A program made the translations under genes and the position numbers. A stretch of 64,000 nt of DNA from an uncultured Myxococcales bacterium (lineage in GTDB: Bacteria > Myxococcota_A > UBA9042 > CAIXZC01). Positions 3,335-59,682 of the stretch are shown here, piece after piece. The stretch is from NCBI GenBank assembly GCA_903895725.1, contig CAITUV010000048.1, positions 8,474-72,473 of the forward strand, written 5' to 3'. The number at the start of each line of letters is the position of its first letter. Within the stretch, counting starts at the first letter, position 1. Below the pieces are notes generated by a model that saw nothing but the letters and a program-made list of their open reading frames with translations, ran no database searches and was not told where the DNA came from.

Positions 3335-6300
3335 ATGAAGACGGTACGTGCAGCGCTTGCGCTCATCCTGCCTCTCGTGCTCGTGGCAGCCTGCTCGAGC
3401 AAAGGGGATCCCAAGGCCAAATTCAAGATCGTGTGTGAGCAGAACGGCCTGTGCGAGTGCGTTGAGAATGCCCAGTGTGCGGAGGGGGAGATCTGCTTCA
3501 ACGGGCACTGCGTGCCCTTGCCGGAGGTCACGCAGGACGTCGAGGGAACGGATCTGGGGCGCGTCGACGCAGAATCGGATGGCGGCCTGAAGCCGGGGGC
3601 GTTCAAGTCGCCGTGTGCCACGAACGAGGAATGCGATTCGGGCATCTGCATCGAGATCGCACCGGGGGTCCTCGTCTGCACGCAGCCGTGCGTGGACGAC
3701 TGCCCGGACGGCTGGGAATGCCGAGGGACGAGCCAGGACGACAACGTGGTCCAGTTCTACTGTCTGCCGAAGCAGGACCGGCTGTGTCAGCCGTGCAAGA
3801 CCGACGTGAGCTGCACGGGCACCAAGAACCTCTGCATCGAGATCGGTGGGCTGAACAACTGCGGTCGCGACTGCGCCGAAGTGGCGTGTCCCAACGGCTA
3901 TGTCTGCCAGGACGTGGTGAGCGTCGAGGGGGTCGAAGGCAAGCAGTGCGTGCCGGCAAACGGCCAGTGCCAGTGCACTCCGGAGACGGTGGGGAAGCAG
4001 TTCCAATGCGAGGTGGAGAACGAGCACGGAAGCTGCCCCGGGCTTCAGGTATGTCAGGAGGACGGGTCCCTGACCCCCTGCGATGGCGCCACGGCGGAAC
4101 CCGAGACATGTGATGGCGAGGACAACGACTGCGATGGGTTCGTGGACGAGGGGATCGAGCCCGTGGCGTGCTCCAAGGAGAACGAGAATGGTACGTGCAT
4201 GGGCTCGCAGGTCTGCCTTCCCGGACTGGGGGAAACATGCAAGGCGGCGGAGCCTTCCCCGGACATCTGCGACACGCTGGACAACGACTGTGACGGCAGC
4301 ACCGACGAGGATTTCCGAGACGAGCAGGGAAAGTACTTCCAGACGGAGAACTGCGGAAGCTGCGGCGTCAACTGCAACGGCATGTTCGCCCATGCCGTCG
4401 AGATCAAGTGCTCGATGGAATCGGAGCTGCCGGTCTGTGCAATCGCGAAGTGCGAACCGGGGTATCTCCTCGTGAGCGACACGCTCTGTCTGCCGGCAAT
4501 CCATCACCTCTGCGAGCCGTGCGTGGGCGACTCGGCCTGCGTCGGGCCGGCGGACAAGTGCATGGCCATGAGCCCCGTGGACACGCAGACGTTCTGCGGT
4601 CGGGATTGCTCTGCCGACAACCAGTACGGAGCCGGTTGTCCGGAAGGGTACTCGTGCAAGAAGGTCGAATCGGGCGGTGAGGAATTCGAGCAGTGCGTTC
4701 CGCTCAACGGAACGTGCGATTGCTCGGAGCTCAACGCCGGGCTGGCAAAGCCCTGCAACGTCGTGAACCAGAATGGAACCTGCTTCGGCGTGGCGGTCTG
4801 CGACGCGGCGCTGGGATGGACCGGCTGCACGGCACTGACGCCTCAGGCCGAGGAGTGTGATGGCAAGGACAACGACTGCGATGGCGTGATCGACGAGGAG
4901 CTCAGCGGGAACCCATGCGTGGTCACCAACGAGCTCGGCACGTGCAGTGGAACCGAGGTGTGCGGGGGAGCGCAGGGGCTGATGTGCTCGGCACCCTCTC
5001 CCCAGCTGGACGTATGCGACGGCAAGGACAACGACTGTGACGGAGCGATCGACGAGGATTTCGCCACCAACGTCGTGGACGATGCCGGCGATCTCGTGGC
5101 CCTGGTCTACGACCTGTCGAACGAGCATTGCGGCGCGTGCGGGATTCCGTGTCTGGCCGTGCCGCCGGCGGCCAAGGCCGAATGCTCGGCCGACGGTCTC
5201 GATGCACTCTGCATGGTGGTGGAGTGCCAGGAGGGCTACTATCCGTCGAGTGCCAACAGCTGCCTCCACATCCCGGCATCCAACCTCTGTCTTCCCTGCC
5301 AGCAGGACACGGACTGCCTTGGTCCGAACGACCATTGCCTCTCCTACCCGGAGGGTACGTTCTGCGGCAGGGACTGCTCGGTCGGCAGCATCTATGGCGA
5401 TGCGGACGGTCCCTGCTCCGGAGAGGAAGGGGTCCAGGGATGCTGCCCTGCGGGATACCTCTGCACGGCCGGTCAGTGCCTGCGCGAGTCGCTGTCGTGC
5501 GACTGTAGCGCGGACGGCAAGGTGAAGCTGTGCGACAATGCCAATGCGGAGGGCACGTGCATCGGCGTCAGGACCTGCGTGGTCTCGGGGCCCGATGCGG
5601 GATGGCAGCCGTGCAGCGCCGCCACGCCCCAGCCCGAGGTTTGCGACGGCAAGGACAACGACTGTGATGGGCTCTTCGACATGATCGACCCATCGATCGA
5701 CGTGGCCGGTCTTGCCGGCTACCCCGACTGCTTCAATGTGAGCGAGGCCTGTCCGGGCAAGTGGACCTGCCTCCAGGCGGGCGGGAAGTTCGAGTGGGTC
5801 TGCTCCGCCCCGGAGCCTTCCAATGAGCTCTGCAACGGGCTGGACGATGACTGCGACGGTGCGGTGGACGAAGATTTCAAGGACGAAGCCGGTGTGTTCT
5901 CCCTGCTCGGCCATTGCGGACAATGCGGCCTGGATTGCGCCTCGGCCGTCGCCCACCTGGCCAAGGGGCAGGACGGGAGCGTGCTGCCCGGAGCCGTGAC
6001 GTGCACCGCCATCGGCGGTCAACAGGGCTGCCGGCCCAAGGCCTGTGAGCCCGGGTATTACCTGTTCCCGACGCCGGAAGCGGCAACGGTCTGCTTCCAG
6101 TTGGAGGCGGCCAGCTGCCAGCCATGCGCCCAGGCGACCGATTGCCCGGGGGCCGGCCATGCCTGTGCTTCGGTCGGAGAGGATGCCGGGGCCTATTGCC
6201 TGCAGCGGTGCGATGCCGGATCCCCCTTCCCTGGGTGTACCGGCGAGGAGGGGAAGCAGGGCTGCTGCCCGGCCGGGTTCCTTTGCAGCGAGGTCGGCGG

Positions 6301-8614
6301 CATGCCTCAAGGCCAGGCCTACTGCCTGCCGGTGAGCGGTACCTGCCAGTGCAACGGGCCGAACGTGGGGTTGCAGCGTCCCTGCACGGTGAGCGCGGAT
6401 GGTGGCCTGACTACGTGCTTCGGTATTGCCGAGTGTGCGGACAAGGGAGGAGGCGACATCTCCTGGGGACCTTGTGACACGTCCGCCAACGTCGAGGTTT
6501 GCGACGGCAAGGACAACGACTGCGACGGCGTGGCTGATGACGGCTTCAAGGTCAACGGAAAGTATGCCGGCGACGGCAATTGCGGGCAGTGCGGCAAGAA
6601 CTGCGCTCTGAAATGGAGCGCGCAGAAGCAGCATGCCACTGGCAAGTGCGATGCGATGCTGCCCGGCGGACCGGACTGCGTCCTCGGCTCCTGCACCTTC
6701 GACCTGGTCGGCGGCGGGAAGCTCTGTCTCTCGGATGCCGACTGCGTGGGAGACACGGCGGGTCCGACCTGTCTACCCCAGCTTTTCCAGTGCGGCCGCA
6801 CGTGCACCGGCGATGCCGAATGTGCCGGAGGGGCCTGCATCGGGGGCTGGTGCAGCCCCGCATGCGTGAACACTGCCGCCTGCCAGGCGAAGTTCGGAGC
6901 GTGGTCCTTCTGCCAGCAGGGGCATTGCGTGACCAAGCACCAGTATTTCGACCTGGACGGCTGGACCGGGAACGGTTGCGAATGCCCCGCCATGGCCGGC
7001 CTGACTCTGGATGAGCCGGAGGTGATGCTTACCTATCCCCTCCCGGGTGACAGCTACGTGGACCGGAACTGCGATGGGGTGGACGGGGATGTGGCAACGG
7101 CCCTGTTCGTGGCCGAGGGGGGAGCCGGAGACGGAAGCCGATGGGCTCCGTTCGGCAGCATCCAGAAGGCCATCGACGCGTTCAAGGTCGGCGTTCACAG
7201 CCACATCCTGGTGGCTGCCGGGGCCTATGAAGAGCGGCTCGTTCTCAAGAACGGCGTGAAGATTTTCGGGGGGTACAGCGACGACTTCTCCACTCGGGAC
7301 ATCGTGCTCCTGCCCACCGTGGTTACCGGCCCTGCACCGGATTTCGGCCAGGGTGCGGTCAAGCCGGGGACGGTGTATGCGTCGGCAATCACTCAGGAGA
7401 CGGTGGTGGCCGGGTTGACCATCCTTGGCTACGACGTGCCGCCTGGCGGGACCTCGTCAGGAATGGCCTCCTACGCAGTCTTCATCGAAGGGTCCTCCTC
7501 CGCTCTCCGGCTCCAGAACAACTGGCTGGTCGGAGGTCAGGGCGGTGCGGGAAAGCCGGGAGGCAGCGGACATTCCGGGACCCCCGGCGGGAGCGGTGCG
7601 GTCGGAGCGGCCTCGGCCGAGTGCCTCCCCGGTCCGCTGTGCACGGGGGCGTGCAACAACCTGACGTGCACGGGGTACCTGAAGGCCGGCGGGGCCGGAG
7701 GAACCAACACCGAATGTGCCGCCTCGGTCGGATGTGCAGGCATGGAAGCGGAAGGTGGGGAGAACCCGCAGGTGAAGGATGCGCCGGCACCGGGCTGTAC
7801 GTATGCATCGGGCGGCCAGCAGGCAACCTACGGGGGGGGGCCGGCGAACCTGTGCAAGTATGACTGCACGGTGAGCACGACCATGGTCGGTCCCGGCGGA
7901 GGCGACGGGACGAGCGGCGCCGGGGGGACCGGGGGAAGCGGATGCTCCAGCCCGTTCGGAACGGCGGCCGTTGGCCAGTGGCAGGCCGGGAGCGGGGCCG
8001 TGGGCACGGCGGGAGGGGCCGGGACCGGGGGACAAGGCGGATCGGCCGGCTCGACGGTCGTGAACACCAAGGCCGGGACCTGCACCGTGGGGAACTATGC
8101 CGGCGACCTCGGGGGAAGCGGTGGCGGAGGCGGGGCGGGTGGGTGCGGTGGCTCTGGCGGCCTCAACGGCCAGTCAGGCGGTGCCAGCATGGTGGTCTTC
8201 CTCGCATCCGGAGCCGCAGGGAGCTTCGCCAAGGTGACGGGCAACCTGGTCACTCGGGGGCTCGGTGGGGCCGGCGGCAGCGGCGGTAACGGCGGCAGCG
8301 GCGGAAAGGGTGGAAGCGGCGGCATCGGCGGCACTTCGGGCTGGCCGGCCTGGTGCGCGGGCACGGGCGGTACCGGTGGTCGCGGAGGCGACGGCGCTCC
8401 GGGAGGAGGAGGCGGAGGAGGGTGTGGCGGCCCCTCCATCGGAATCGCCGTCGTCGGCGGCAGCACGGCAGCCTACCTCGCGGAGAACTCGTTCACCCTG
8501 AGCGATTCCACGGCGACCGGCGGTCCCGCAGGCAGCGGCGGAATGAGCGCTGCCGACAATGGAGCGGGCAAGGCGGGAAGCCAGGGCGGAAGCCAGAACG
8601 TGAGGGGGTACTAG
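3335..8614 (+). CDS. Giant cysteine-rich lipoprotein (1759 aa). It has a lipoprotein signal, then four or so Cys-rich super-modules each ending in a CDGxDNDCDG-x-DE (MopE-like, putative metal-binding) motif, then a C-terminal DUF1565-like beta-helix and a poly-Gly (GGxGG) tail.
   Basis: N-terminus 'MKTVRAALALILPLVLVAACSS' (lipobox LVAAC), with an RBS 'GGAGAA' upstream. Repeated motifs 'ETCDGEDNDCDGFVDEG', 'EECDGKDNDCDGVIDEE', 'EVCDGKDNDCDGVADDGF'. 'NCDGVDGDVATALFVAEGGAGDGSRWAPFGSIQKAIDA...ILVAAGAYEERLVL' (beta-helix). C-terminal 'GGAGGSGGNGGSGGKGGSGGIGG...GGGGGGGCGGPSIGIAVVGG'. Strongly GC3-biased sense strand; the antisense ORF is Arg/Ala ghost sequence. Confidence 0.9.
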   Translation: MKTVRAALALILPLVLVAACSSKGDPKAKFKIVCEQNGLCECVENAQCAEGEICFNGHCVPLPEVTQDVEGTDLGRVDAESDGGLKPGAFKSPCATNEECDSGICIEIAPGVLVCTQPCVDDCPDGWECRGTSQDDNVVQFYCLPKQDRLCQPCKTDVSCTGTKNLCIEIGGLNNCGRDCAEVACPNGYVCQDVVSVEGVEGKQCVPANGQCQCTPETVGKQFQCEVENEHGSCPGLQVCQEDGSLTPCDGATAEPETCDGEDNDCDGFVDEGIEPVACSKENENGTCMGSQVCLPGLGETCKAAEPSPDICDTLDNDCDGSTDEDFRDEQGKYFQTENCGSCGVNCNGMFAHAVEIKCSMESELPVCAIAKCEPGYLLVSDTLCLPAIHHLCEPCVGDSACVGPADKCMAMSPVDTQTFCGRDCSADNQYGAGCPEGYSCKKVESGGEEFEQCVPLNGTCDCSELNAGLAKPCNVVNQNGTCFGVAVCDAALGWTGCTALTPQAEECDGKDNDCDGVIDEELSGNPCVVTNELGTCSGTEVCGGAQGLMCSAPSPQLDVCDGKDNDCDGAIDEDFATNVVDDAGDLVALVYDLSNEHCGACGIPCLAVPPAAKAECSADGLDALCMVVECQEGYYPSSANSCLHIPASNLCLPCQQDTDCLGPNDHCLSYPEGTFCGRDCSVGSIYGDADGPCSGEEGVQGCCPAGYLCTAGQCLRESLSCDCSADGKVKLCDNANAEGTCIGVRTCVVSGPDAGWQPCSAATPQPEVCDGKDNDCDGLFDMIDPSIDVAGLAGYPDCFNVSEACPGKWTCLQAGGKFEWVCSAPEPSNELCNGLDDDCDGAVDEDFKDEAGVFSLLGHCGQCGLDCASAVAHLAKGQDGSVLPGAVTCTAIGGQQGCRPKACEPGYYLFPTPEAATVCFQLEAASCQPCAQATDCPGAGHACASVGEDAGAYCLQRCDAGSPFPGCTGEEGKQGCCPAGFLCSEVGGMPQGQAYCLPVSGTCQCNGPNVGLQRPCTVSADGGLTTCFGIAECADKGGGDISWGPCDTSANVEVCDGKDNDCDGVADDGFKVNGKYAGDGNCGQCGKNCALKWSAQKQHATGKCDAMLPGGPDCVLGSCTFDLVGGGKLCLSDADCVGDTAGPTCLPQLFQCGRTCTGDAECAGGACIGGWCSPACVNTAACQAKFGAWSFCQQGHCVTKHQYFDLDGWTGNGCECPAMAGLTLDEPEVMLTYPLPGDSYVDRNCDGVDGDVATALFVAEGGAGDGSRWAPFGSIQKAIDAFKVGVHSHILVAAGAYEERLVLKNGVKIFGGYSDDFSTRDIVLLPTVVTGPAPDFGQGAVKPGTVYASAITQETVVAGLTILGYDVPPGGTSSGMASYAVFIEGSSSALRLQNNWLVGGQGGAGKPGGSGHSGTPGGSGAVGAASAECLPGPLCTGACNNLTCTGYLKAGGAGGTNTECAASVGCAGMEAEGGENPQVKDAPAPGCTYASGGQQATYGGGPANLCKYDCTVSTTMVGPGGGDGTSGAGGTGGSGCSSPFGTAAVGQWQAGSGAVGTAGGAGTGGQGGSAGSTVVNTKAGTCTVGNYAGDLGGSGGGGGAGGCGGSGGLNGQSGGASMVVFLASGAAGSFAKVTGNLVTRGLGGAGGSGGNGGSGGKGGSGGIGGTSGWPAWCAGTGGTGGRGGDGAPGGGGGGGCGGPSIGIAVVGGSTAAYLAENSFTLSDSTATGGPAGSGGMSAADNGAGKAGSQGGSQNVRGY

Positions 8615-8615
8615 A

Positions 8616-11600
8616 ATGAAGACTCTCAACAGCCAGGTCGTTCTGCTCCTCGCCCTGCTCATCGCTTTCTCCTGTTCGTCGGGGACCAAGGTCGAGCAGC
8701 CCGACGTGCCGTGCATCGGGGAGGGGTGTCCCTGCATTTTTGGCGCGGACTGCCCCCAGGGCATGAACTGCATCAACGGGTACTGCAGCAGCGAGAATCC
8801 TTTCGGAGACCTGGGCTTCCCCGATTTCGGGCAGGGCGACGTGGCCGGTGAGGACGGCATCGATGCGAGTGGCAGCGAGGTCGACGCCGGACAGGCGGAG
8901 GTCTTCCAGCCTCTGCCCTTCGGCGACGGTTGCACGAGCAACCTGCAATGCGAGTCCGGCTGGTGCGTGGATTCCCCGGATGGCGGCTACTGCTCGAAGA
9001 CGTGCGACGACGGGTGTCCCGACGGCTGGCTGTGCAAGATCGTCGCCCAGACTTATCCCGACACGATCTCCATCTGCGTCCAGGACAAGACCCGACTCTG
9101 TCTGCCGTGTGAGATCGACTCCCATTGCGGAGATGCCGGCGATCTCTGCCTGGAGATCGGCGGGGGAAAGTTCTGTGGCCGCGACTGTGCGGTGGAGCCG
9201 TGCCCCGGCGGCTACGATTGCCTCGAAGTGCCGTCCACCGGAGGCCCGGTCAAACAATGCGTGCCGTCCACCGGAGCCTGCGACTGCAATGCGACTACGG
9301 TGGGACAGGTAAGGGGCTGCCTCGTCACCAATGAGCTGGGAACCTGCTTCGGCATGGAGCACTGCGACGCGCTGCTGGGCTGGGTCGAGTGCTCGGCCGC
9401 GGTGCCCGAGGCCGAGCTCTGCGACGGCCTCGACAACAACTGCAACGGGCAGCCGGACGAAGGATTCTCAGCGGAGCCCTGTTCTTCAGAGAACGAGCTC
9501 GGCACCTGCGTCGGAACCCGTACGTGCCAGGGGGGCGCCGGCTGGGTATGCTCCGCCCCGACTCCGGCGAAGGAAGCGTGCAACGGGCTTGACGACGACT
9601 GCGACGACCAGGTCGACGAGGGGTTCGTCGACGACCAGGGGGCCTACCTCGACGTCGAGAACTGCGGCATGTGCGGCAACTCCTGCCTCGCCAAGTTCGT
9701 GGGTGCTGCGGAGGTGGCTTGCGTGCTCGTAGAGGGGGAGGAGAAGTGCAAGCTGCTGAGCTGCCTGCCCGGCTACTTCATGTTTAACGAGAGCACCTGC
9801 CTGGACGAAGATTCCTTCCTTTGTCAGGTCTGCAACAGCGATGACGACTGCTATGGAGAGTTGTCCAAGTGCCTGCCGGCAAGTGCCACCGACCCCAGGA
9901 CCTTCTGCTTCCGGGACTGCAGCGGCAATGGGGAGTTCAGCCCCACCTGTCCGGGCGGATACACGTGCACCGAAGCGGCGGGGGGAACGCTGTGCCTGCC
10001 CGACAACGGGAGCTGTGACTGCTCCGAAGGGAACGCAGGGCAGACCAAGGGGTGCTCCGTGGAGAACGGGCTCGGCATCTGCTTTGGAACCGAGACGTGC
10101 GAGCCGGAACTGGGATGGACCGGGTGCTCCGCAATGACCCCGTCTCCCGAGGTGTGCGACGGCATCGACAATGACTGCGATGGCGTCATGGACGAGGATA
10201 CGACCCTGGGCGAGCCTTGCCAGACCGCCAACGAGAACGGAACCTGCACGGGAATCGAGCAGTGCGCCGGTCCGATGGGGCTCGTGTGCTCCGCCGCAGT
10301 GCCCGCATCCGAGGTGTGCGACGGCCAGGACAACAACTGCGATGGGAGCACCGACGAGGGATTTGCCGTTCTCGCAGGCGACCCCCCGGTGCTCAAGTAC
10401 GGGCTGAGCCCCAGCCACTGCGGAGCATGCAACTACGAATGCCCCGGGGTCGCCCATGGGACGGTGAAATGCGACCCGATTCCAGCGGTTCCCGCCTGCA
10501 CCGTGGACCAGTGCGATGCCGGCTACTTCGACTACCTCGGTGTGGCCTGTCTGCCTGTCCCGGTTGCAAACCTGTGCGCCCCTTGCCAGGGGGATTCCGA
10601 TTGCCAGGGCCCGGACGATTCCTGCATCGCCGAGCCGGACGGCGCTTCCTTCTGCGGCCGGGACTGCGGCCCGGACAGCATCTACGGAATCGACGGGGCC
10701 GTCTGCACTGGTGTTCCCGGCCAGCAGGGGTGCTGCCCGGACGAGTATCTCTGCCAGGCTGCGGGGACCGGCTTCCAGTGCCGCCCTGTGAGCGGAACCT
10801 GCACGTGCATCGAGGACGGAAAGACCAAGGCGTGCACGGTCGCCAATGCGAACGGCGAGTGCATGGGAATCACGACCTGCTCGGCCTCCGGTCCAAACCC
10901 GGGCTGGAGCGCGTGCAGCGCACAGACGCCTGCGCCGGAAGCGTGCGACGGGTTGGACAACGACTGTGACGGGGCCATCGATGGCCAGGACCCATCGCTC
11001 GGCTTCGCTGGCACGCCCAACGGGTCCCCCGACTGCGCAACGGGTCCCGCCTGCCTCGGCGCCTGGCTCTGCCTGGCCGGGGAGTGGCAATGCACCGCCC
11101 TGGCCGCCTTGCCCGAGAAGTGCGACGGCCTCGACAATGATTGCGACGGAGTGACGGACGAAGGCTTCCTGATCGACGGTCAGTACCAGACCGCCCAGCA
11201 CTGCGGTGCGTGCGGGTACGATTGCCTCCAGCTCATCCCGCACAGCATCGGTCCGCTATGCTCCGTGGCGTCGGGAAAGCCGCAGTGCGTGGCAAGCCAG
11301 TGCGAGCCCGGGTACTTCCCCTACGGCGGTGGAAAGGCCTGCATGAAGCTCCCTGACAATCTCTGCCAGCCGTGCGGCTCCGACGCCGATTGCCTTGTGC
11401 CGTCCAGCCGCTGCGTCGTGCTGGGGCAGGAGATGGTGTGCGGCCGGGACTGCTCGCCAACGAGCCCCTACGGCCAGGTCTGCCCTGCCGGGTACTCCTG
11501 CTTCGCCGCCGGAGCGGTTCAGCAGTGCGTCCCCGATTCCGGGACGTGCGTGTGCGGACCGGACACCGTCGGGTTGTCTCGCTCCTGCACCGATGGCTCG

Positions 11601-13661: not shown

Positions 13662-13688
13662 CCCAACGGTCTCCACCGCCCTTCTTGA

Positions 13689-13968: not shown

Positions 13969-13972
13969 GCGA

Positions 13973-14947: not shown

Positions 14948-15345
14948 CGGTCAGCCGTCTCCAGGTTAGAGCCACAGGCCAGGGCCGCCTCGTCGGGACG
15001 GGAGGCCGAACCGAGACCCCGAGGATACTGCATCTCGAGCACGCTGTGAAGCGCTCTGACGTGGTGTGTCGTCCCGATGGAAATCCTGTCCTGCCGACCC
15101 ACGTGGCGCAACCCGGTCGGAGTTGCTGTGACAGAGACGCCGGGGGTCACCGCCGCAGAGGGCGGGGCCAGCGAGGGAGCCGTCCGCTGGGCACTCGGGG
15201 CACTGAGGGACTGCGCTCGGCACAGGGCAGGTCCCGCAAGCCCGACCGGTCGGTCGAAAAGCGCTTGAACCCCGGCAGTGGATGTGCTTTGATCAACAGG
15301 AGTTGGCGCCCGAGTTACTTTCCCCTTTGCAGCGGAGTGGAACCC

Positions 15346-45834: not shown

Positions 45835-45835
45835 C

Positions 45836-47508: not shown

Positions 47509-47528
47509 CCGAAACGAGCAGCAGGCGA

Positions 47529-49119: not shown

Positions 49120-49923
49120 ATGTTTCAGCGAAGCGAGCTGCTGCTCGGTCCGACGACCGTGAAGGCACTCTGGGGCACCCGGGTGATTCTGTTCGGCGTC
49201 GGCGGGGTCGGGAGCTGGTGCGCTGAGGCGCTGGTAAGGAGCGGTGTTGGTCACCTGGCGATCGTGGACTCGGACAGCGTCTGTATCACAAACGTGAACC
49301 GGCAGCTCCAGGCGACGCCGGCGACGGTAGGCCGCATCAAGGTGGAGGTGCTGGCCCGACGACTGAGGGAGATAAGCCCCGACGCGGAGATCGTGGTCTT
49401 CCCGATTGCCTATGACGAGAGCACTTCGGACTCGTTCGGACTCGAGCGCTACGACTATGTGCTCGATGCCATCGATTCCCTGAGTCACAAGCTGGGGCTC
49501 ATCCGGAAGGCATTGTCGCTCGGGTGTCGGCTGTACTCGTCCATGGGCGCTTCGGCACGGCTCGACCCGACGAAGGTGAGGGTCGGGTCCCTCTGGAAGA
49601 CCCGAGATTGCCCGCTCGCCATGCGGGTTCGCAAGCGGCTCAGGAAGCACGGAATCACGACTGCTCTCACGGTGGTATACAGCGAAGAGCTGCCGATGGA
49701 GAGCCTGGAAACCTCGGATTGCGGGACTCCTGCCTGCCACTGTCCACGGCGGGCCATCGCTGAATCGGGCGAAGAGGTGGAGGGGCACGAATGGTGCAGC
49801 TCCAAAGCGTACATCAACGGTTCAATCATGCCGGTCGTGGCGACGTTCGGGATGTCCCTGGCGAGTCTCGTGATACGGGATGTGCTGGAGCGCAGCGGCG
49901 GCAGAGAGGGGAAGGGCCCATGA
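49120..49923 (+). CDS. tcdA: tRNA threonylcarbamoyladenosine dehydratase (ThiF/MoeB-family E1-like, TcdA/CsdL)
   Basis: 'ILFGVGGVGSWCAEALVRSGVGHLAIVDSDSVCITNVNRQ'. An alternative GTG start lies at 49090. The track start at 48703 overlaps the minus-strand gene. Confidence 0.8.
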   Translation: MFQRSELLLGPTTVKALWGTRVILFGVGGVGSWCAEALVRSGVGHLAIVDSDSVCITNVNRQLQATPATVGRIKVEVLARRLREISPDAEIVVFPIAYDESTSDSFGLERYDYVLDAIDSLSHKLGLIRKALSLGCRLYSSMGASARLDPTKVRVGSLWKTRDCPLAMRVRKRLRKHGITTALTVVYSEELPMESLETSDCGTPACHCPRRAIAESGEEVEGHEWCSSKAYINGSIMPVVATFGMSLASLVIRDVLERSGGREGKGP

Positions 49924-52088: not shown

Positions 52089-52142
52089 CAACGGGCTTGC
52101 GCGTGTGGTTTGCTGGCAGGAAGGTTGACGGTGGAGGTCGGC

Positions 52143-55100
52143 ATGATCGCACGGAAGCACTTCTGGCTCGTTGCTTCGCTCCTGTTTTCTGCCGGATGCG
52201 GCGGCGGGGGAGAGATCATCTCGATCGAGGATGTTGCGCTGGACCAGGCGGGAGAGACTGCGGACGCGGTCATGGCTCCCGAGGTCTCCGAGGCCGCGGC
52301 GGACCTCGTCCCCATCCCGGATGCGACACCCGAAGCAGCAGTCGATGCCACGCTGCCGGACGGCTGGGTCGAGCCCGGCGCGTTTGGAGCCCCGTGCTTT
52401 GGCGGGACCGATTGTGCCTCAGGGCTCTGCATCCGGACGACGGCCGGCATGCAGTGCACGGGGCCGTGCGTCGACGAGTGCCCGCAGGGGTTCAAGTGCG
52501 TTTCGTACGAGGGAGGCGGGCCGGACATCATGTTCGTGTGCGTCGATCCGTTCCTGACCCTGTGCCGTCCCTGCTCGACCAATGCGGACTGCCAGGGCAA
52601 CGAGGATGCGTGGGCGGGGGAGCGGTGTGCGTCCTACGGTGCTGCCGGCAGCTTCTGCTCCATGCCGTGTGCGCAGGTGGACGACTGTCCGGCAGGCTAC
52701 CTCTGCGAGGAGACCGTGGATTCAAGCGGGGCATCGTCGCTCCAGTGCGTGCTGGCCGAGGGCGAGTGCGAATGCCCGCAGTGGTTTGCGGACGAGGGGG
52801 CTTCGACCTCGTGCTTCGTGGAGAACGAGTGGGGAACGTGCTCCGGTACGCGGGCCTGCACGGCAGCGGGGCTGGCGGCGTGCACGGCAGCGGTCCCGGC
52901 CAAGGAGAGCTGCAACGGGCTCGACGATGACTGCGACGGCCAGGACGACGAGGAGACTGCAGGCGGAACCTGCCCCGTCGTCAACGAGCTCGGCACCTGC
53001 CCGGGCACCACGCTCTGCCTGGACGGAACCGAGACCTGCCAGGGCGCTGCCGCGGCCCCGGAGCAGTGCGACGGGTTGGACAACAACTGTAACGGTACCA
53101 AGGACGAGGGGTTCCCCGATGCAGACGGGGACGGGACCGCAGATTGCCTGGAGAACGACAAGGACAACGACCTGGTGCCGGACTACCTCGACAACTGCCC
53201 GTCGGTGGCCAACTCGGAGCAGAAAGACTTCGACCTGGATACCCTGGGCGATGCGTGCGATCCCGACGACGACGGCGACAAGACCGGGGATGCAACGGAT
53301 TGTGCCCCGCTCGACGACAAGGTGTACCCCGGTGCGACCGAGACCTGCGACGGCAAGGACAACGACTGCAACTACGTTGTGGACGAAGGGTTCCCGGATG
53401 CCGACGTCGACGGCTGGAAGGACTGCACCGACCCGGACGACGACAACGACGGCAGCGCGGATGCTGCAGACTGTATGCCGCTTGACGCGGAGGCTCACCC
53501 CGGTGCAGTCGAGACCTGCAATGGCAAGGACGACGACTGCGACTTTGCCATCGACGAGACCTTTCCCGATCTGGATGGCGACGGACAGGCGGACTGCGTG
53601 GACAGCGACGTCGACGGCGACGGTCTCGGCAACGGCGACGACAACTGCCCCCAGGTCGCCAACGCGGATCAGACCGACCTCGACGGCGACCAGGTAGGCG
53701 ATGCCTGCGACCCGGACAAGGACGGCGACGCCATCCCCGAGCTTGCGGACAACTGCCCGCTTACCAAGAACCCGGCCCAGGCCGATACCGACCAGGATGG
53801 ACAGGGCGATGCCTGCGACGATGACGACGACGGCGACGGCTACGGCGACGGCGCCGACAACTGCCCGCTTGCCAAGAACCCGTCCCAGGCCGACCTCGAC
53901 CAGGATGGCGTCGGAGACGCGTGCGAGGGGGATCTGGACGGTGACGGTACTCCGGATTCCCTCGACTGTGCGCCGCTGAACGCCACCGTGCACCCCGGGG
54001 CATTCGAGGCCTGTAACGGCGCGGACGACAACTGCAATGGAACCGTGGACGAGGGGGCACCGGACACGGACTTCGACGGTTTCAAGAACTGTGTCGACCC
54101 GGACGATGATGGGGACGGCGACCCGGATGACGCGGACTGTGCGCCGCTCAACCTTGCGGTGCACCACGCTGCGGTCGAGAGCTGCAACGCCATCGACGAT
54201 GATTGCGACGGCCAGATCGACGAGGGGCTCGGGGCACTTTCGTGCGGGAAGGGCGTGTGCGCTCACAAGATTCCCGCCTGTCTCGACGGCAAGCAGCAGA
54301 CTTGCGATCCATTCCAGGGAATCCAGGAAGAAGTGTGCGACGGCAAGGACAACGATTGCGATGGGTTGACGGACGAGGACCAGGGCAAGCTGACGTGCGG
54401 CCTCGGGACGTGCGTGCACACCGTACCCGCCTGCCAGGAGGGGAAGGACAACGTGTGCGACCCCGCAGCCGGTGCCGTCCAGGAAGTGTGTGACGGCAAG
54501 GACAACGACTGCGATGGGGCGGTGGACGAGGAGCTGGGACAGCTCGCCTGCGGCAAGGGCGTCTGCTTCCATACGGTCAAAGCCTGCATCGGCGGAGAGC
54601 CTCAGCCATGCGAACCGTTCCAGGGAGCTTTGCCCGAAGCCTGTGACGGGCTGGACAACGACTGCGACGGAAGCGTCGACGAGAATCTGGGGGAGACATC
54701 CTGCGGCCTGGGTCCCTGCGAGCACACGGTCCCCTACTGTGCCGGGGGCAAGGTGCAGCAGTGCAACGCGTTCGAGGGCGCTGCCGTCGAGGCCTGCGAC
54801 AGCGTGGACAACGACTGCGACGGGCTGGTCGACGAGGACATGGGGTTTGCGAGCTGCGGTCTGGGCGTCTGCTTCCACATCGTCAAGCTCTGCTCCGGCG
54901 GGGTGCTCCAGGTGTGCGATCCGCTGGAGGGCGCTGCCGGGGAGGCGTGCGACGGCGTGGACAACGACTGCGATGGCATCGCCGATGACGGGTTGGGCGA
55001 CATCACCTGCGGCCTGGGGGAGTGCGTCCACACGGTTCCCGTCTGCAAGGAGGGCAAGCAGAACAGCTGTGATCCGCTCGAGGGGGAATCCCCCGAGGCG

Positions 55101-55955
55101 TGCGACGGCAAGGACAACGATTGCGACGGTCAGACGGACGAGTCCTTCGCCGACCAGGACGGCGACGGCCAGGCAGACTGCGTCGATCTCGACGACGATG
55201 GCGACGCGGATCCGGATGGGACGGACTGTGCACCGCTCGATCCGACCATCGGCTCCAACCAGAAGGAGAAGTGCTTCGACGGCAAGGACAACGACTGCGA
55301 CGGAAGCACCGACGACGATCCGGAGTGCATTCTCAAGAGCTGCGCCGAGCTCCTGGCCTCGAACCCCGCACTGCCGTCGGGGACCTACACGATTGACCCG
55401 GACGGCGGGGGCGGGAAGCCCTCGTTCGCCGCGTGGTGCGAGATGGCGCTGGACGGAGGGGGCTGGACCCTGGTCTGGAAGCACTCCTACTACGAAGTGG
55501 GGGCACCGACGGACACCATGCGCTTCTACAGCACCAGCGCAAAGGAGTGCAAGGACACGACGGCCGGATGGTGCAATGTGCCGGGCAAGCTGTCCGTTGG
55601 CAAGACGCAGCAGCTCGTCATCGCCACCTACCAGGGGACGACCGTTTACGCTTACAAGGGGGACTTGAATCCCAAGATCGACTCGAGCTGGGAAGGCGCC
55701 ATACTCAAGAACGCAACCAGCCTGGTCGACAAGTGCGTCAACAACGTGGGAGTGGCCCCGGAGCCCGAGGTGGGAGGGCATGCGATGCCCGGCATCACGT
55801 TCGACAAGGCGACCCCCAACGACTATGTGTCCAATTGCGATACGGATCGGTACGGAGGGGGCTCGGATTGCCGCTGGGAGAACTGCGGTCTGCCGGGAAA
55901 CATCGCCCCCTCGAGCACTCACGTGCAGATGACCGTGATGATCTACGTGCGCTGA
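52143..55955 (+). CDS. Cys-rich lipoprotein with a thrombospondin type-3 repeat array, seven or so MopE-like CDGKDNDCDG modules, and a C-terminal fibrinogen-related domain (FReD)
   Basis: RBS GGTGGAGG. 'MIARKHFWLVASLLFSAGCGGGG'. TSP3: 'DNCPSVANSEQKDFDLDTLGDACDPDDDGD', 'DNCPQVANADQTDLDGDQVGDACDPDKDGD', 'DNCPLAKNPSQADLDQDGVGDACEGDLDGDG'. FReD: 'CAELLASNPALPSGTYTIDPDGGGGKPSFAAWCEMALDGGGWTLVWKHSY...'. Confidence 0.85.
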   Translation: MIARKHFWLVASLLFSAGCGGGGEIISIEDVALDQAGETADAVMAPEVSEAAADLVPIPDATPEAAVDATLPDGWVEPGAFGAPCFGGTDCASGLCIRTTAGMQCTGPCVDECPQGFKCVSYEGGGPDIMFVCVDPFLTLCRPCSTNADCQGNEDAWAGERCASYGAAGSFCSMPCAQVDDCPAGYLCEETVDSSGASSLQCVLAEGECECPQWFADEGASTSCFVENEWGTCSGTRACTAAGLAACTAAVPAKESCNGLDDDCDGQDDEETAGGTCPVVNELGTCPGTTLCLDGTETCQGAAAAPEQCDGLDNNCNGTKDEGFPDADGDGTADCLENDKDNDLVPDYLDNCPSVANSEQKDFDLDTLGDACDPDDDGDKTGDATDCAPLDDKVYPGATETCDGKDNDCNYVVDEGFPDADVDGWKDCTDPDDDNDGSADAADCMPLDAEAHPGAVETCNGKDDDCDFAIDETFPDLDGDGQADCVDSDVDGDGLGNGDDNCPQVANADQTDLDGDQVGDACDPDKDGDAIPELADNCPLTKNPAQADTDQDGQGDACDDDDDGDGYGDGADNCPLAKNPSQADLDQDGVGDACEGDLDGDGTPDSLDCAPLNATVHPGAFEACNGADDNCNGTVDEGAPDTDFDGFKNCVDPDDDGDGDPDDADCAPLNLAVHHAAVESCNAIDDDCDGQIDEGLGALSCGKGVCAHKIPACLDGKQQTCDPFQGIQEEVCDGKDNDCDGLTDEDQGKLTCGLGTCVHTVPACQEGKDNVCDPAAGAVQEVCDGKDNDCDGAVDEELGQLACGKGVCFHTVKACIGGEPQPCEPFQGALPEACDGLDNDCDGSVDENLGETSCGLGPCEHTVPYCAGGKVQQCNAFEGAAVEACDSVDNDCDGLVDEDMGFASCGLGVCFHIVKLCSGGVLQVCDPLEGAAGEACDGVDNDCDGIADDGLGDITCGLGECVHTVPVCKEGKQNSCDPLEGESPEACDGKDNDCDGQTDESFADQDGDGQADCVDLDDDGDADPDGTDCAPLDPTIGSNQKEKCFDGKDNDCDGSTDDDPECILKSCAELLASNPALPSGTYTIDPDGGGGKPSFAAWCEMALDGGGWTLVWKHSYYEVGAPTDTMRFYSTSAKECKDTTAGWCNVPGKLSVGKTQQLVIATYQGTTVYAYKGDLNPKIDSSWEGAILKNATSLVDKCVNNVGVAPEPEVGGHAMPGITFDKATPNDYVSNCDTDRYGGGSDCRWENCGLPGNIAPSSTHVQMTVMIYVR
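53157..53950 (+). repeat. Thrombospondin type-3-like Ca-binding repeat array (D-x-D-x-D-G-x-x-D-x-C / DNCP-x-x-x-N-x-x-Q-x-D)
   Basis: Motif recognition; see the parent CDS. Confidence 0.7.
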
Positions 55956-55992
55956 GCAGAAGGTGACAGTCTTTCAACCGGGAGATGCCGTC

Positions 55993-58900
55993 ATGACCAC
56001 TCGCAAGCTGTTTCGGATTACGCTCCTGAGCGTTCTCGTTCCGGCCGTCGGATGCAGCACTTCAGGCAACACGGTGGAGAAACCGGAGCCGGATCTCGGC
56101 ATCGAGGTCGTCGACTCCAGCGTCGCTCCGGAAGTCGTACCCCCGGATGCCATGGAAGTCGAGCCCGAGGTGCCTCAGGTCGAGTTGCTCGTTGAGGCCG
56201 TGGAGGAATCGGGTGGCCCGAAGTGCGCACCGGGCGAAGGGTGCTTCCTGGACCCATGCCAGGAGAACGATTCCTGCCAATCGGGCTGGTGCGTGGACCA
56301 CATGGGGGCCGGAGTCTGCACCATTGCCTGCGAGGAGGAGTGCCCTCCCGGCTGGTCGTGCCAGCAGATCGGCTCGGGTCCCGACGTGAACTACGTCTGC
56401 ATCTCGAACCACGCAAACCTTTGCCGGCCTTGCGGCAGCGGGGACAACTGCAAGAGCCCGGGGGGTGCGGAGGACGTGTGCGTGGACTACGGTGCGGAGG
56501 GCAGCTTCTGCGGGGGAACCTGCAACAGCGACGAGGATTGCCCCTGGGGTTTCTCGTGCATCGAAGCCTCCACGGTGGATGGAATCGAAGTGAAGCAATG
56601 CGTGGCCGATGCGGGAGTCTGCCCGTGTACCGAAAAGTCCGTGAGCCTGGCATTGTGGACCCCTTGCCAGAGCAGCAACGAGCACGGCGTGTGCCAGGGG
56701 CAGAGGGTGTGTACCGAGGCCGGGCTGTCCGCGTGTGACGCGGCTGTGCCCGCACAGGAATCGTGCAACGGCATCGACGATGATTGCGACGGGGAGGTCG
56801 ACGAGCCGCAGCAGGTGGGCGGAGAGTATATTTCGCTCTGCTCGGACGGGAATTCGTGCACGAAGGATCAGTGCGCGGGCGTTGACGGCTGCACTAACAC
56901 GGCGCTCAACGAGGGCGAGTGCATGGACGGAGATGCGTGCACCGTGGGGGACCATTGCCAGGAAGGGACGTGCGTGGGGCTCCCTGTCGCCTGCGATGAC
57001 GGTGACCCCTGCACCGACGACCTGTGCGACGGACTGGGAGGCTGCAAGACCGAGTTCAACACCGCTGCGTGCGACGACGGAGATGCGTGCACGGTCGCGG
57101 ATGGCTGCGTCGAGGGGGTGTGCGGCGGCGTTGCCGTCCCTTGTGAGTGCCAGGCGGATTCCGATTGCCTGTCACTCGAGGATGGCGATGTCTGCAACGG
57201 GACACTGTTCTGCGACAAGGGGAAGTGGCCGTATCTTTGTGCGGTCGAGCCGGGAACCGAAATCACGTGCCCGCTGCCGCCGGCCGGGAAGGATGCGTTC
57301 TGCCAGGCCACTGCGTGCGACAGCGGGACCGGGAAGTGCTCAATCGTCCCGGCTCACGAGGGTTTCGCCTGTGATGACGGGGATGCCTGCACCATCGGTG
57401 AGCACTGCGCCTCCGGAACCTGCGGCCAGGGGGCCGGGCTCGGATGCCAGGACGACAATCCCTGCACGGACGACTCGTGCGAGCCTGGCGTCGGGTGCAT
57501 CCACAAGGCGAACGCTGCACCGTGCAGCGACGGGAACGTGTGCACGACGGACGACATGTGCTCGGCCACTGTATGCGTCGGCGGAGCGCTTCTGGCCTGC
57601 GACGACGGCTCGGTGTGCACCGGCACGGAGACCTGCGATCCTTCCGTCGGCTGCAAAGCGGGCCTCTCCCTCGTGTGCGATGATCAGGACGCCTGCAACG
57701 GAAAGGAGAGCTGCCACCCGGCCAAGGGGTGCCTGGCCGGAATCCCTCCGGTTTGTGACGACTTGAACCCATGTACCGACGACTCGTGCGACCCTCTGTC
57801 GGGGTGCGTTCACAAGGGGAATACCGCCGCCTGTGACGACGGCAACGCCTGCACCACGGGGGACAAGTGCTCGGCAGGAAGCTGCCTCGCCGGTGAGGCG
57901 ACAAGCTGCAACGACGGCAATCTCTGCACGACCGACACCTGCGTGCCGGCCAAGGGATGCATGTTCCTGCTCAACACGGTCCCGTGCGACGACGGCGACT
58001 TGTGCACGACCGGGGACCATTGCTCCCTGGGGGCCTGCATCTCGTCGGGGAAGCTGACCTGCAACGACGGGAATCCGTGCACGGCCGACTCGTGCACCCC
58101 CGGAGCCGGCTGCCAGTTCGTGCCCACCTCGGCCGCGTGCGACGACGGCAATGCGTGCACCTCGGGCGATGCCTGCACCAAGGGCCAGTGCCTCGGGCCG
58201 GACGTGGTGAGCTGCGACGACGACAATGTCTGCACGAAGGACTTCTGCTCCCCGTTGACCGGCTGCGGGCACAGCCCTCTGGCCGGGCCGTGTGAGGACG
58301 GGACCGAGTGCAGCGTCGGGGATACCTGCCAGAACGGAGTGTGCGTGGCCGGGCCACCGCTCGCCTGCGACGATGGGAACCAGTGCACCGTCGACGTCTG
58401 CGACCCCAAGCTGGGGTGCGTGTACAAGGCATTCGTGGGAGGCTGCGACGACGGAAACCCGTGCACCCTGGTGGATGTGTGTCAGGGCACGGTCTGCGCA
58501 CCCGGGTTGCCCAAGGACTGCAACGACGACAACCAGTGCACTACGGACACCTGCGACCCGGCCAAGCTGTGCGTGAACAGCCCGAAGGCCGGCAACTGCG
58601 ACGACAGCAACGCGTGTACGACGGGAGAGGCCTGCCAGGCGGGCGTCTGCAAGGGGGGCACCCCCCTGGACTGCAACGATGGGAAGCCGTGCACGACCGA
58701 CTCGTGCGACCCCCTCCTGGGGTGCGGACACATCGACACTGTCCCGTGCTGCGGGAATGCCAAGCTCGAGGCGGGCGAGGAGTGCGACGACGGAAACATC
58801 GTGGGCGGGGACGGATGCGAGCCTGACTGCAAGCAGTTCACCCCGGTCAGCGTGACGTTCAACAACTGTGGGCAGACGGGCCCGTCGGGGCCAAACCAGA

Positions 58901-59682
58901 GCCAGTGCAACAGCGCCTACTCGGGCAACCCGCTCCTCAACGGCAAGGTGACCGTCACTGCCGGCATCCAGTTCTGGACCGTGCCGTACACCGGGACCTA
59001 CCGGATCGAGGCTTTCGGAGCCAGGGGCGGCTGCAACGGCGGCAACGGTGCGCGGATGCGGGGCGATTTCGCCCTGACTCAGGGCACCCAGCTCAAGATT
59101 CTGGTCGGACAGCAGGGATCGGCTGCCCCCGCAAGCGTGGGCAACGGAGGTGGCGGTGGGACGTACGTGGCGAAGGCCGACAATGCCCCCATCATCGTTG
59201 CGGGCGGCGGTGGAGGAACGGGGCACGATTGCTACGCGGACTACGACATGAGCGGAGTCACCGGCATCGATGGAATCAAGGGCAAGTACGAGACCGCCGG
59301 GCTGGGCGGAGTGAACGGACAGGGCGGCGGATACGGGCTGACCACCCAGGGCGTTCCCAACGCCGGCGGTGGCGGCGGCTTCTACGGGGACGGCGGGAGC
59401 ATCGGACATGCCAATGGCGGGAAGGCCTTCGTGAACGGAGGCGTGGGCGGCTCCACGACCGGAGGATTCGGCGGCGGCGGCGGCTCGGACCAGTTCATCT
59501 ACGGCTGCGGCGCATCGCCACACGGCGGCAGCGGCGGCGGAGGCTACTCGGGCGGCGGCGGCGGCGCAACGAACTGCAACGGCCCGGGCGGTGGCGGCGG
59601 CTCCTACAACAACGGTGCCAACCCGTCCAACTCAGCTGGCGCCAATTCGGGGCACGGCAGCGTGACCATCAATCGCATCTGA
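55993..59682 (+). CDS. Cys-rich lipoprotein with about 13 Dictyostelium-type (CTDC) repeats, one Myxococcus cysteine-rich repeat, and a C-terminal ALK/LTK-like glycine-rich (GlyR/TNF-like) domain
   Basis: 'MTTRKLFRITLLSVLVPAVGCSTSG'. CTDC: 'CDDGNPCTDDSC', 'CSDGNVCTTDDMC', 'CNDGNLCTTDTC', 'CDDGNQCTVDVC'. Myxococcus cysteine-rich repeat: 'CCGNAKLEAGEECDDGNIVGGDGCEPDC'. GlyR: 'FNNCGQTGPSGPNQSQCNSAYSGN...GIQFWTVPYTGTYRIEAFGARGG...LKILVGQQG...GGGGGTYVAK...IIVAGGGGG...GGFGGGGGS...GGGGYSGGGGG'. Confidence 0.85.
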   Translation: MTTRKLFRITLLSVLVPAVGCSTSGNTVEKPEPDLGIEVVDSSVAPEVVPPDAMEVEPEVPQVELLVEAVEESGGPKCAPGEGCFLDPCQENDSCQSGWCVDHMGAGVCTIACEEECPPGWSCQQIGSGPDVNYVCISNHANLCRPCGSGDNCKSPGGAEDVCVDYGAEGSFCGGTCNSDEDCPWGFSCIEASTVDGIEVKQCVADAGVCPCTEKSVSLALWTPCQSSNEHGVCQGQRVCTEAGLSACDAAVPAQESCNGIDDDCDGEVDEPQQVGGEYISLCSDGNSCTKDQCAGVDGCTNTALNEGECMDGDACTVGDHCQEGTCVGLPVACDDGDPCTDDLCDGLGGCKTEFNTAACDDGDACTVADGCVEGVCGGVAVPCECQADSDCLSLEDGDVCNGTLFCDKGKWPYLCAVEPGTEITCPLPPAGKDAFCQATACDSGTGKCSIVPAHEGFACDDGDACTIGEHCASGTCGQGAGLGCQDDNPCTDDSCEPGVGCIHKANAAPCSDGNVCTTDDMCSATVCVGGALLACDDGSVCTGTETCDPSVGCKAGLSLVCDDQDACNGKESCHPAKGCLAGIPPVCDDLNPCTDDSCDPLSGCVHKGNTAACDDGNACTTGDKCSAGSCLAGEATSCNDGNLCTTDTCVPAKGCMFLLNTVPCDDGDLCTTGDHCSLGACISSGKLTCNDGNPCTADSCTPGAGCQFVPTSAACDDGNACTSGDACTKGQCLGPDVVSCDDDNVCTKDFCSPLTGCGHSPLAGPCEDGTECSVGDTCQNGVCVAGPPLACDDGNQCTVDVCDPKLGCVYKAFVGGCDDGNPCTLVDVCQGTVCAPGLPKDCNDDNQCTTDTCDPAKLCVNSPKAGNCDDSNACTTGEACQAGVCKGGTPLDCNDGKPCTTDSCDPLLGCGHIDTVPCCGNAKLEAGEECDDGNIVGGDGCEPDCKQFTPVSVTFNNCGQTGPSGPNQSQCNSAYSGNPLLNGKVTVTAGIQFWTVPYTGTYRIEAFGARGGCNGGNGARMRGDFALTQGTQLKILVGQQGSAAPASVGNGGGGGTYVAKADNAPIIVAGGGGGTGHDCYADYDMSGVTGIDGIKGKYETAGLGGVNGQGGGYGLTTQGVPNAGGGGGFYGDGGSIGHANGGKAFVNGGVGGSTTGGFGGGGGSDQFIYGCGASPHGGSGGGGYSGGGGGATNCNGPGGGGGSYNNGANPSNSAGANSGHGSVTINRI
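56839..58735 (+). repeat. Array of about 13 Dicty_CTDC-like repeats (C-x-D-x-N-x-C-T-x-D-x-C, about 48 aa period)
   Basis: See the parent CDS. Confidence 0.7.

Follow-up and report, generated by a model that had tools for sequence, protein, structure and literature searches.

We describe here five long lipoprotein genes, and the family to which they belong, in a 64,000-nucleotide stretch of DNA (the window) from an uncultured Myxococcales bacterium (GenBank assembly GCA_903895725.1, contig CAITUV010000048.1, positions 8,474 to 72,473). All five proteins begin with the same cysteine-rich module, and they end in tip domains (heads) of three unrelated types. The N-terminal core of the module, about 170 amino acids (aa) long, is covered by no database model and occurs in at least 3,700 protein clusters. 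It marks a family that is very large and whose giant members are probably surface proteins of uncultured Myxococcota and Bradymonadia. Modular Cys-rich surface proteins of bacteria are a known kind of protein; the unmodelled N-terminal domain and the unusually clear swapping of heads are new. We consider it somewhat probable that this is a lineage-specific family of surface-display lipoproteins for the binding of glycans or prey by uncultured Myxococcota-type bacteria.

The five genes are called A to E, for the coding sequences (CDS) at 3335, 8616, 19249, 52143 and 55993, and P-numbers denote database proteins:

CDS A, 3335..8614, plus strand: 1759 aa, lipoprotein with four super-modules and a beta-helix/Gly-rich tip
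A signal peptide, 3335..3394, plus strand: lipobox LVAAC (Cys20), from the translation
CDS B, 8616..13661, plus strand: 1681 aa, lipobox IAFSC (Cys20)
CDS C, 19249..24651, plus strand: 1800 aa, lipobox LAFSC (Cys23), same sequence as database protein P0033
CDS D, 52143..55955, plus strand: 1270 aa, lipobox FSAGC (Cys19)
CDS E, 55993..59682, plus strand: 1229 aa, lipobox PAVGC (Cys21)

A preliminary description of the window had given each of these reading frames a lipobox signal, and all five are present on the plus strand with the lipobox Cys at residue 19-23, closing a short, basic and hydrophobic signal (VAAC, AFSC, AFSC, SAGC and AVGC in A to E). B starts 1 nt past the stop of A, and E starts 37 nt past the stop of D. 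Identical proteins, all without a name, are held in public metagenome assemblies, including one 174-kb scaffold (ENA ERZ18644181), and the public gene calls of C, D and E agree in length with the CDS of the window. Straight after the lipobox, A and B (window 3395-3520 and 8676-8800) carry an additional motif, some 30 aa long and containing 6-7 Cys, for example CEQNGLCECVENAQCAEGEICFNGHC, which is also found in P0056 and P0103 and is missing from C, D and E.

The N-terminal regions of the five proteins are homologous. Composition-adjusted BLASTP of these regions linked A to B at an E-value of 2e-57, A to D at 2e-34, A to E at 1.5e-28, B to D at 2e-26, B to E at 2e-27, C to D at 4e-25, C to E at 3e-22 and D to E at 6e-41. 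In a five-way alignment of the approximately 170 residues preceding the first MopE motif, 35 columns are invariant, of which 24 are Cys, and the cores are 37-43% identical to one another. When a hidden Markov model (HMM) of the module was run against 431 six-frame open reading frames (ORFs) of the window (at least 80 aa), A to E alone matched at E<=1e-3. It gave no match to the four other Cys-rich ORFs, at 13973-14947 (minus strand), 15046-18195, 49791-52088 and 59697-63998 (minus strand), which carry 40 to 114 Cys each. Because of the BLASTP results, the aligned Cys and this HMM control, we regard the likeness as homology rather than composition. The opposing idea, that generic cysteine richness imitates a family that does not truly exist, is refuted by the strength of the composition-adjusted E-values, by the HMM passing over the other Cys-rich ORFs and by 827 database clusters matching at E<=1e-30 with full-length coverage; nothing was found in its favour, and we give it next to no credence. 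The common super-module of the preliminary description, for which pairwise alignment of the five regions had been named as the test, is therefore borne out (3e-22 to 2e-57, with 24 invariant Cys) beyond mere Cys richness, and the motifs listed there all fall in register: C-x-SG-x-C, CP-x-GW-x-C, LC-x-PC, FCG-x-x-C, CP-x-GY-x-C, C-x-C, NE-x-G-x-C-x-G and MopE. A full-length local BLASTP of A against B returned zero alignments despite the 2e-57 of their N-termini, a technical artefact that possibly stems from composition adjustment on Gly-rich sequence.

The module is built of four units, namely twin mini-domains with eight Cys each (a and b) followed by two units that join a hairpin to a MopE motif. 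In the module of A, the mini-domains lie at residues 5-58 and 62-120; a and b are homologous to each other (hhalign probability 98.4%, E 4.7e-15, from family-wide alignments of both halves). Units 3 and 4 consist of a beta-hairpin and a C-x-DG-x-DNDC-DG-x-x-DE loop, which is the motif of Pfam PF11617 ('Cu-binding_MopE'). AlphaFold had been proposed for one super-module, and an AlphaFold2 model of the 250-aa module, made from a 30-sequence alignment, was confident, with a predicted local distance difference test score (pLDDT) of 91.5 and a predicted template modelling score (pTM) of 0.59. It shows beta-hairpins throughout and a secondary-structure pattern that matches between both mini-domains, and we read the lower pTM as suggesting a beads-on-a-string arrangement. 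The core that precedes the MopE motifs has no match in Pfam (E<=5), NCBIfam or PDB sequences and no PDB analogue by Foldseek (best E 0.8), and a PDB sequence search with the MopE/TSP3 region yielded no solved structure. Against the cut-off of 27 bits, PF11617 scores 77 in A, 95 in B, 97 in C and 179 in D, which qualifies these four for the MopE-related class without implying copper binding; E is not reported by Pfam for PF11617 and has one MopE motif by pattern. PF11617 covers the 30-aa motif only, and the family-defining core of a, b and hairpin c lies outside it, without a model. The cores and super-modules are placed as follows:

A N-terminal core, 3596..4102, plus strand: mini-domains a and b plus hairpin c, no Pfam model
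A super-module 1, 3515..4345, plus strand: independent E-value (i-E) 1.4e-117 by hmmsearch, includes two MopE motifs
A super-modules 2-4, 4475-5071, 5141-5899 and 6041-6595, plus strand: i-E 8e-53, 8e-30 and 2e-14
B N-terminal core, 8913..9413, plus strand: from the alignment
B super-modules 1-4, 8847-9662, 9792-10379, 10539-11192 and 11337-11798, plus strand: from the module HMM
C N-terminal core, 19483..19971, plus strand: from the alignment
C super-modules 1-5, 19447-20223, 20326-20925, 20938-21636, 21760-22344 and 22444-23001, plus strand: from the module HMM
D N-terminal core, 52377..52904, plus strand: from the alignment
D single super-module, 52311..53141, plus strand: i-E 3e-109
E N-terminal core, 56239..56757, plus strand: from the alignment
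E single module with one MopE motif, 56173..56895, plus strand: i-E 2.3e-79

Ahead of the tip, super-modules stand in tandem in A (four copies), B (four) and C (five), where most internal copies are without most of the first mini-domain, and D and E have one each. Because A, B and C carry tandem copies, the stalk is best described as a conserved base to which a varying number of extra modules is added. The earlier picture of a single super-module followed by the tip holds for D and E but not for A, B and C. Similarly, its one N-terminal stalk survives as the conserved base common to all five, whereas the stalks themselves are of two types, MopE super-modules in A, B, C and D and Dicty_CTDC repeats in E.

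The family extends far beyond the window. An exhaustive search with a 169-column HMM of the core against 1.84 billion representative proteins (clusters at 50% identity) matched 3,710 clusters at E<=1e-3, 2,466 at E<=1e-10 and 827 at E<=1e-30. Among the best 150 matches, the full core begins at residue 70-130 in almost all. Family proteins are 262 to 4,398 aa long and hold up to 31 matched stretches per protein, with 1-16 module copies. A lipobox, defined as [LVI][ASTVI][GAS]C closing an N-terminal signal peptide, was recognized in 121 of 144 complete-looking family proteins that start with Met; by eye, about ten of the 23 that failed this rule appear N-terminally truncated, and most of the others bear a lipobox all the same. 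In 93 of the 121, residue +2 after the lipid Cys is Ser or Gly, a sequence feature that suggests sorting away from the inner membrane. The acidic linker from the lipid Cys to the core has a median length of 61 aa (interquartile range 56-66), and Asp, Gly, Ala and Pro make up about 49% of its residues. When the GTDB species representatives were scanned, 31 assemblies gave full-length matches. These are without exception metagenome-assembled genomes (MAGs), and the labels of nearly all read Myxococcales, Myxococcota, Deltaproteobacteria or Bradymonadia. Tandem pairs are frequent, and at least 11 family loci lie in a single MAG. Members that have a name at all read 'hypothetical protein', no paper describing this family was found in literature searches, and neither Pfam nor NCBIfam has a model of the core, all of which agrees with the preliminary statement that it had not been described as a system. 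A Pfam or NCBIfam model of the core would rename thousands of such hypothetical proteins.

Two further observations were made on related sequences. Hairpin and MopE units without the a+b core occur on 37 viral-labelled IMG/VR contigs (L083-L119) of 38-48% GC, some longer than 150 kb; a phage origin of the family was rejected, as the viral contigs bear MopE units alone and never the core. At the related MAG loci L003, L041 and L051, ORFs for the tip lie directly downstream of the module ORFs or overlap them in a different frame, a layout that suggests frameshifts or assembly errors in long repetitive genes.

Tips are swapped on this constant base. The last 400 residues of 134 proteins, from the 149 best representatives and the five window proteins, fall into 45 unrelated BLAST clusters, the largest of which (51 members) is of the beta-helix/Gly-rich type. 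Of 58 pairs with 70-89% identity between their N-terminal modules, 51 carry unrelated tips, in agreement with the constant base and swappable distal domains of the preliminary description. P0112 and P0126, for example, are 66% identical across their first ~700 residues and then continue into a propeller-like repeat and a beta-helix, respectively; P0115/P0121 and P0139/P0147 diverge in a similar pattern. In 27 representatives, Pfam recognized Laminin_G_3, TIG, LTD, Beta_helix/NosD, DUF5122 and Vgb_lyase-like propellers and Gly_rich_2, and many tips have no model. Two sub-architectures can be distinguished: an A/B/C-like base with a stalk of MopE super-modules carries mostly beta-helix/Gly-rich tips and at least 15 other types, and an E-like base with a CTDC stalk carries 26 tip clusters in 45 proteins. 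Their divergence marks the five genes of the window as old paralogs within one family. No sign of recent gene conversion was found among them, with DNA identity of at most ~75% in short stretches. Orthologs of at least A, B and E are present in other metagenomes, conserved fairly evenly along their length (45-63% identity for A and B once signal and linker are left out, 40-64% for E).

The three tip types that had been distinguished in A to E are all confirmed, that is, beta-helix and Gly-rich in A, B and C, TSP3 and fibrinogen-like in D, and CTDC and ALK-like in E:

A tip, 6932..8611, plus strand: NCDGVDG junction, beta-helix of pectin-lyase fold, conserved Gly-rich domain
B tip, 11928..13658, plus strand: beta-helix and Gly-rich domain
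C tip, 22969..24648, plus strand: beta-helix and Gly-rich domain, the commonest tip type of the family
D middle region, 53142..55259, plus strand: TSP type-3 repeats alternating with units of the MopE motif
D tip, 55260..55952, plus strand: GGGWT/fibrinogen-related, intelectin-like lectin domain
E stalk of Dicty_CTDC repeats, 56845..58737, plus strand: residues ~285-915, boundaries approximate
E tip, 58783..59679, plus strand: homolog of the TNF-like and glycine-rich ligand-binding domain of ALK/LTK

Downstream of the NCDGVDG junction, the tips of A, B and C have a constant length of 503-540 aa with 26-32% Gly, and tips of this type are present in at least 28 other family proteins. The A tip has no match by sequence in PDB or Pfam. 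According to an AlphaFold2 model (pLDDT 76 overall, mostly 75-95 in the beta-helix part), these tips are right-handed parallel beta-helices of the pectin-lyase fold. They differ from other proteins of that fold (CE8, PL and GH enzymes, phage tailspikes and the PfbA adhesin) in an added Gly-rich domain of about 320 aa and ~30% Gly, for which no structural match was found and the model is partly of low confidence. Because its conservation between orthologs (56-57%) equals that of the remainder of the protein, the Gly-rich tip is taken to be a real domain and not low-complexity filler.

A beta-helix of this fold raises the alternative that the proteins are surface-tethered polysaccharide depolymerases or esterases, in which the stalk would do no more than present an enzyme, and the A, B and C heads would cleave the capsule of prey, exopolysaccharide or polysaccharide from algae. 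The neighbouring gene at 283-3102, encoding a beta-helix/GH141-like protein with CBM6/35, and the NosD/Beta_helix and Vgb_lyase-like propeller tips elsewhere in the family are in line with it. However, the beta-helix heads are just 12-18% identical to enzymes, the tips of D, of E and of many other members have no enzyme relatives, being domains of lectin or receptor type, and the idea could apply to part of the family only. We consider it possible, though unlikely, as an account of these proteins.

The tips of D and E belong to the latter, lectin- or receptor-type class. D has TSP_3 at 94.3 bits (3e-27, above the Pfam cut-off), and its tip reaches 61 bits in NF040941 GGGWT_bact against a cut-off of 30 (8e-17). 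In PDB, the D tip comes closest to the intelectin XEEL (E 1.9e-5); tachylectin-5A and the fibrinogen-related domains of angiopoietin and tenascin come next. Recognisable conservation is limited to the first 55-60 residues, the YCD...GGGWT subdomain, in PDB matches and family members alike, and it is over this subdomain only that the D tip resembles the fibrinogen-related and X-type (intelectin) lectins; the full Fibrinogen_C domain (PF00147) was not reached, with 16.7 bits against a cut-off of 22 over profile positions 3-48. The GGGWT start is common to eight ORFs among the related loci. E has Dicty_CTDC at 153.5 bits (1e-45, above the Pfam cut-off) in 10 stretches. By phmmer against PDB, its tip matched nine ALK, LTK or SCD-2 chains, with 7mzy at E 2.6e-17, and matches to the human ALK/LTK ectodomains range from 2.6e-17 to 3.5e-14 and are significant over the first ~95 residues only, the Gly-rich part aligning weakly (i-E 2.7). 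The tip shares the WxVPxTGxYxIxxxGAxGG ... ILVGQQG ... GGGGG pattern of ALK/LTK; unlike those receptors, it sits on a bacterial lipoprotein stalk, without a kinase or a known cytokine ligand. Relatives of the ALK/LTK glycine-rich domain thus stand in one bacterial family beside lectins of the intelectin type, TSP3 and Cys motifs like those of teneurins, a combination that bears on the debate over the bacterial origins of metazoan extracellular-matrix (ECM) and receptor modules. The C-x-DG-x-DND-x-DG motif has been noted in teneurins and algal proteins (PMC3278476).

Considering these results, we propose a plausible model for the display of the heads. The type-II signal peptide would direct lipidation of the lipobox Cys, which would anchor the protein in the outer membrane. 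A disordered tether rich in Asp, Gly, Pro and Ala, of nearly fixed length, links this anchor to the base, that is, to the twin 8-Cys mini-domains and the two hairpin units ending in MopE acidic loops. Beyond the base comes a presumably rigid, disulfide-rich stalk of variable length, formed by extra super-modules (1 to 16) or by Dicty_CTDC repeats. The acidic MopE loops may bind Ca2+, by analogy with LDL-A, cbEGF, TSP3 and teneurin C-rich motifs, and the tether together with a probably Ca2+-stiffened stalk would place the head tens of nanometres off the cell. The large pool of heads consists of beta-rich folds for binding or glycan processing, including beta-helix and Gly-rich, GGGWT/intelectin-like, ALK-like, ConA-like LamG, beta-propeller and TIG domains. 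Such heads would bind glycans on prey cells, particles or neighbouring cells, and the beta-helix class would perhaps cleave them, like tailspikes. Recombination downstream of base and stalk would diversify specificity, and tandem duplication would build repertoires. Myxococcota and Bradymonadia are known for predation and polymer degradation, and such cassette evolution, which sets dozens of heads on one base, could underlie their recognition of prey or particles.

Several points weigh against this model. All members come from uncultured organisms, and we infer the ligand class and the biological role, including that of A to E as adhesins or ECM proteins, from sequence. Surface exposure, too, is unreadable from sequence, and a periplasm-facing location is possible. 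Ca2+ binding is argued from likeness to acidic Cys-loop motifs and to teneurin domains, and the PDB search was blank. The sample in which tips without the module were sought (1.3 Mb) is biased toward module-bearing loci. The taxonomic range depends on MAG labels, and two MAGs are labelled Enterobacterales, probably wrongly.

The periplasm-facing location deserves weighing on its own. The proteins would then be lipoproteins of the outer or inner membrane whose modules form periplasmic scaffolds and whose heads act on the envelope polysaccharides of the cell itself. Diderm lipoproteins face the periplasm by default, disulfide-rich domains fold there, and a surface-export signal is not known for this lineage. 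In contrast, proteins that measure 1,200-4,400 aa and whose rod-like stalks can comprise 16 modules would exceed periplasmic dimensions, their head classes are typical of extracellular recognition, and Myxococcota display lipoprotein adhesins such as CglB on their surface. We therefore consider a periplasmic role improbable and keep to surface display. A bolder form of the surface-display model is that the base, kept at a nearly constant distance of ~61 aa from the lipid anchor, is a lineage-specific sorting or docking platform that licenses surface display in one clade of uncultured Myxococcota, not the mere first bead of the stalk, and that the heads form a diversifying repertoire for recognition of prey or glycans. 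This is speculative, and we hold it with limited confidence; if true, the family would be a cellular counterpart of the receptor-binding-protein cassettes of phages, with hundreds of head types that include bacterial relatives of the ALK/LTK domain.

Two known systems of myxobacteria resemble this architecture. TraA, a polymorphic cell-surface receptor for kin recognition in Myxococcus xanthus, combines a conserved stalk of Cys-rich repeats with a variable recognition domain that sets specificity (PMC6372800), and the present proteins, also of Myxococcota type, share with it the conserved Cys-rich stalk carrying a variable head. However, the signal of TraA is of type I, its variable, PA14-like head is N-terminal, its anchor is a C-terminal MYXO-CTERM and it has TraB as its partner. 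The polarity here is the opposite, with an N-terminal lipid anchor and a C-terminal head; moreover, the heads here differ in fold and not in allele alone. Neither PA14 (Pfam) nor MYXO-CTERM (TIGR03901, NCBIfam) matched A to E, whose C-termini have no hydrophobic, basic tail, and no traB-like partner was found in about 50 related loci.

SitA has a lipobox, a disordered segment, a family-defining N-terminal domain and modular, polymorphic C-termini (PMC8546572), and the same succession of lipobox and disordered region occurs in this family, the layouts being compared by description only. This parallel would allow polymorphic lipoprotein effectors of the SitA kind, whose N-terminal 'escort' domain, of one of six families, carries C-terminal cargo to other cells. 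Yet the C-termini of SitA are nucleases with cognate immunity genes, whereas the tips here are lectin, beta-helix, propeller and ALK-like domains. Searches with Pfam, which did not extend to PADLOC or to libraries specific for toxins, found no toxin or nuclease domain in A to E or in the 27 representatives; none of the five genes is followed by a small gene of immunity type, and the proteins are 3-10 times the size of an escort domain of ~375 aa plus toxin. An effector role is disfavoured by the missing toxin domains and immunity-like genes, and we consider it very improbable. NCBIfam gives no match to the N-terminal region of the five proteins. On the domains and partner genes compared, the family belongs to neither TraA nor SitA.

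In the window, the five genes form two groups, at 3.3-24.7 kb and 52.1-59.7 kb. The interval from C to D holds a nuo operon (~24.3-35.3 kb), a DEAD-box helicase, an oxidoreductase, a his operon (38.5-45.8 kb), purH and a ThiF-family gene; C is followed by nuoA, and the genes past B and past E are on the opposite strand. The neighbours of the five genes are further Cys-rich secreted proteins, none of which is conserved beside family members in ~50 related loci:

CBM6/35, beta-helix (GH141-like) and FG-GAP protein, 283-3102
Small lipoprotein with 40 Cys, 13973-14947, minus strand: 'CGSDGCGGxCGxC' repeats, no Pfam/NCBIfam match
FGE-sulfatase/CTDC protein, 15046-18195, plus strand: 114 Cys
Small lipoprotein with 32 Cys, 18201-19094, plus strand: no Pfam/NCBIfam match
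NAGPA/Golvesin_C protein, 49791-52088, plus strand
DUF4214/MopE/DUF5648 protein, 59697-63998, minus strand: truncated at the edge of the window, 1745 aa in the public gene call

The preliminary description had seen in this setting a dedicated cell-surface or matrix locus. On a structural reading of this idea, the proteins would build an extracellular matrix or a surface coat by cross-linking with one another and with polysaccharide. A dedicated locus is not upheld: nuo, his and purH divide the genes, and no conserved neighbour, whether transporter, partner or immunity gene, was found among the ~50 related loci. The ECM-like neighbours named there fared better, FGE-sulfatase and NAGPA being confirmed, but the TSP1 motif in 15046-18195 is seen by eye and Pfam is silent on it. 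A matrix role would suit the eukaryote-like ECM domains (TSP3, fibrinogen-like and MopE/teneurin-like motifs), the further Cys-rich secreted proteins nearby and a partial match of D, through TSP3, to the M. xanthus cell-cohesion protein MtsC, which lies far below the cut-off (155 vs 350 bits). However, extreme head diversity on a constant base suits a recognition repertoire better than a structural polymer, and a lipid anchor favours attachment to the cell over a shed matrix. With the locus interrupted and partner genes not conserved, we consider a structural matrix role quite unlikely.

The host can be placed coarsely. HisD of the window is ~60% identical to named Myxococcota/Deltaproteobacteria MAG proteins. 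The MYXO-CTERM tag is reported to be universal in Myxococcota (PMC11980579). HisD and a MYXO-CTERM match in a neighbouring ORF (below) fit a Myxococcota host. GC content of the window is 65-67%, with strong coding bias at third codon positions (GC3), and tRNA and Rfam scans over the whole window found nothing. In the nuo cluster, nuoD (26163-27356) is directly followed by nuoH (27353-28615); because of this adjacency, the cluster is without nuoE, nuoF and nuoG, the NADH-oxidising module.

Some of the neighbouring proteins have features of their own. The protein at 15046-18195 combines a Dicty_CTDC repeat, the TSP1-like motif WSDWTCGVCSKSCGGG (by eye) and a C-terminal FGE-sulfatase domain with weak similarity to GldK/GldJ-type lipoproteins. 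The protein at 49791-52088 has about six tandem 'CGNGxCxxxESCxxCPxDCGxCP' repeats and a hydrophobic, basic, MYXO-CTERM-like C-terminal tail that NCBIfam does not recognize. On the minus strand at 59697-63998, a MYXO-CTERM match (TIGR03901, 20.4 bits against a cut-off of 20) lies mid-frame at residues 545-575, and a lipobox-like 'LLLAALFLAAC' follows ~45 aa beyond it in the uninterrupted frame; this could be an in-frame fusion of two genes or a genuine two-part protein. The same frame carries five near-identical repeats of 'NACGxCGPxPDEVCDGxDNDCDGQVDEGL'.

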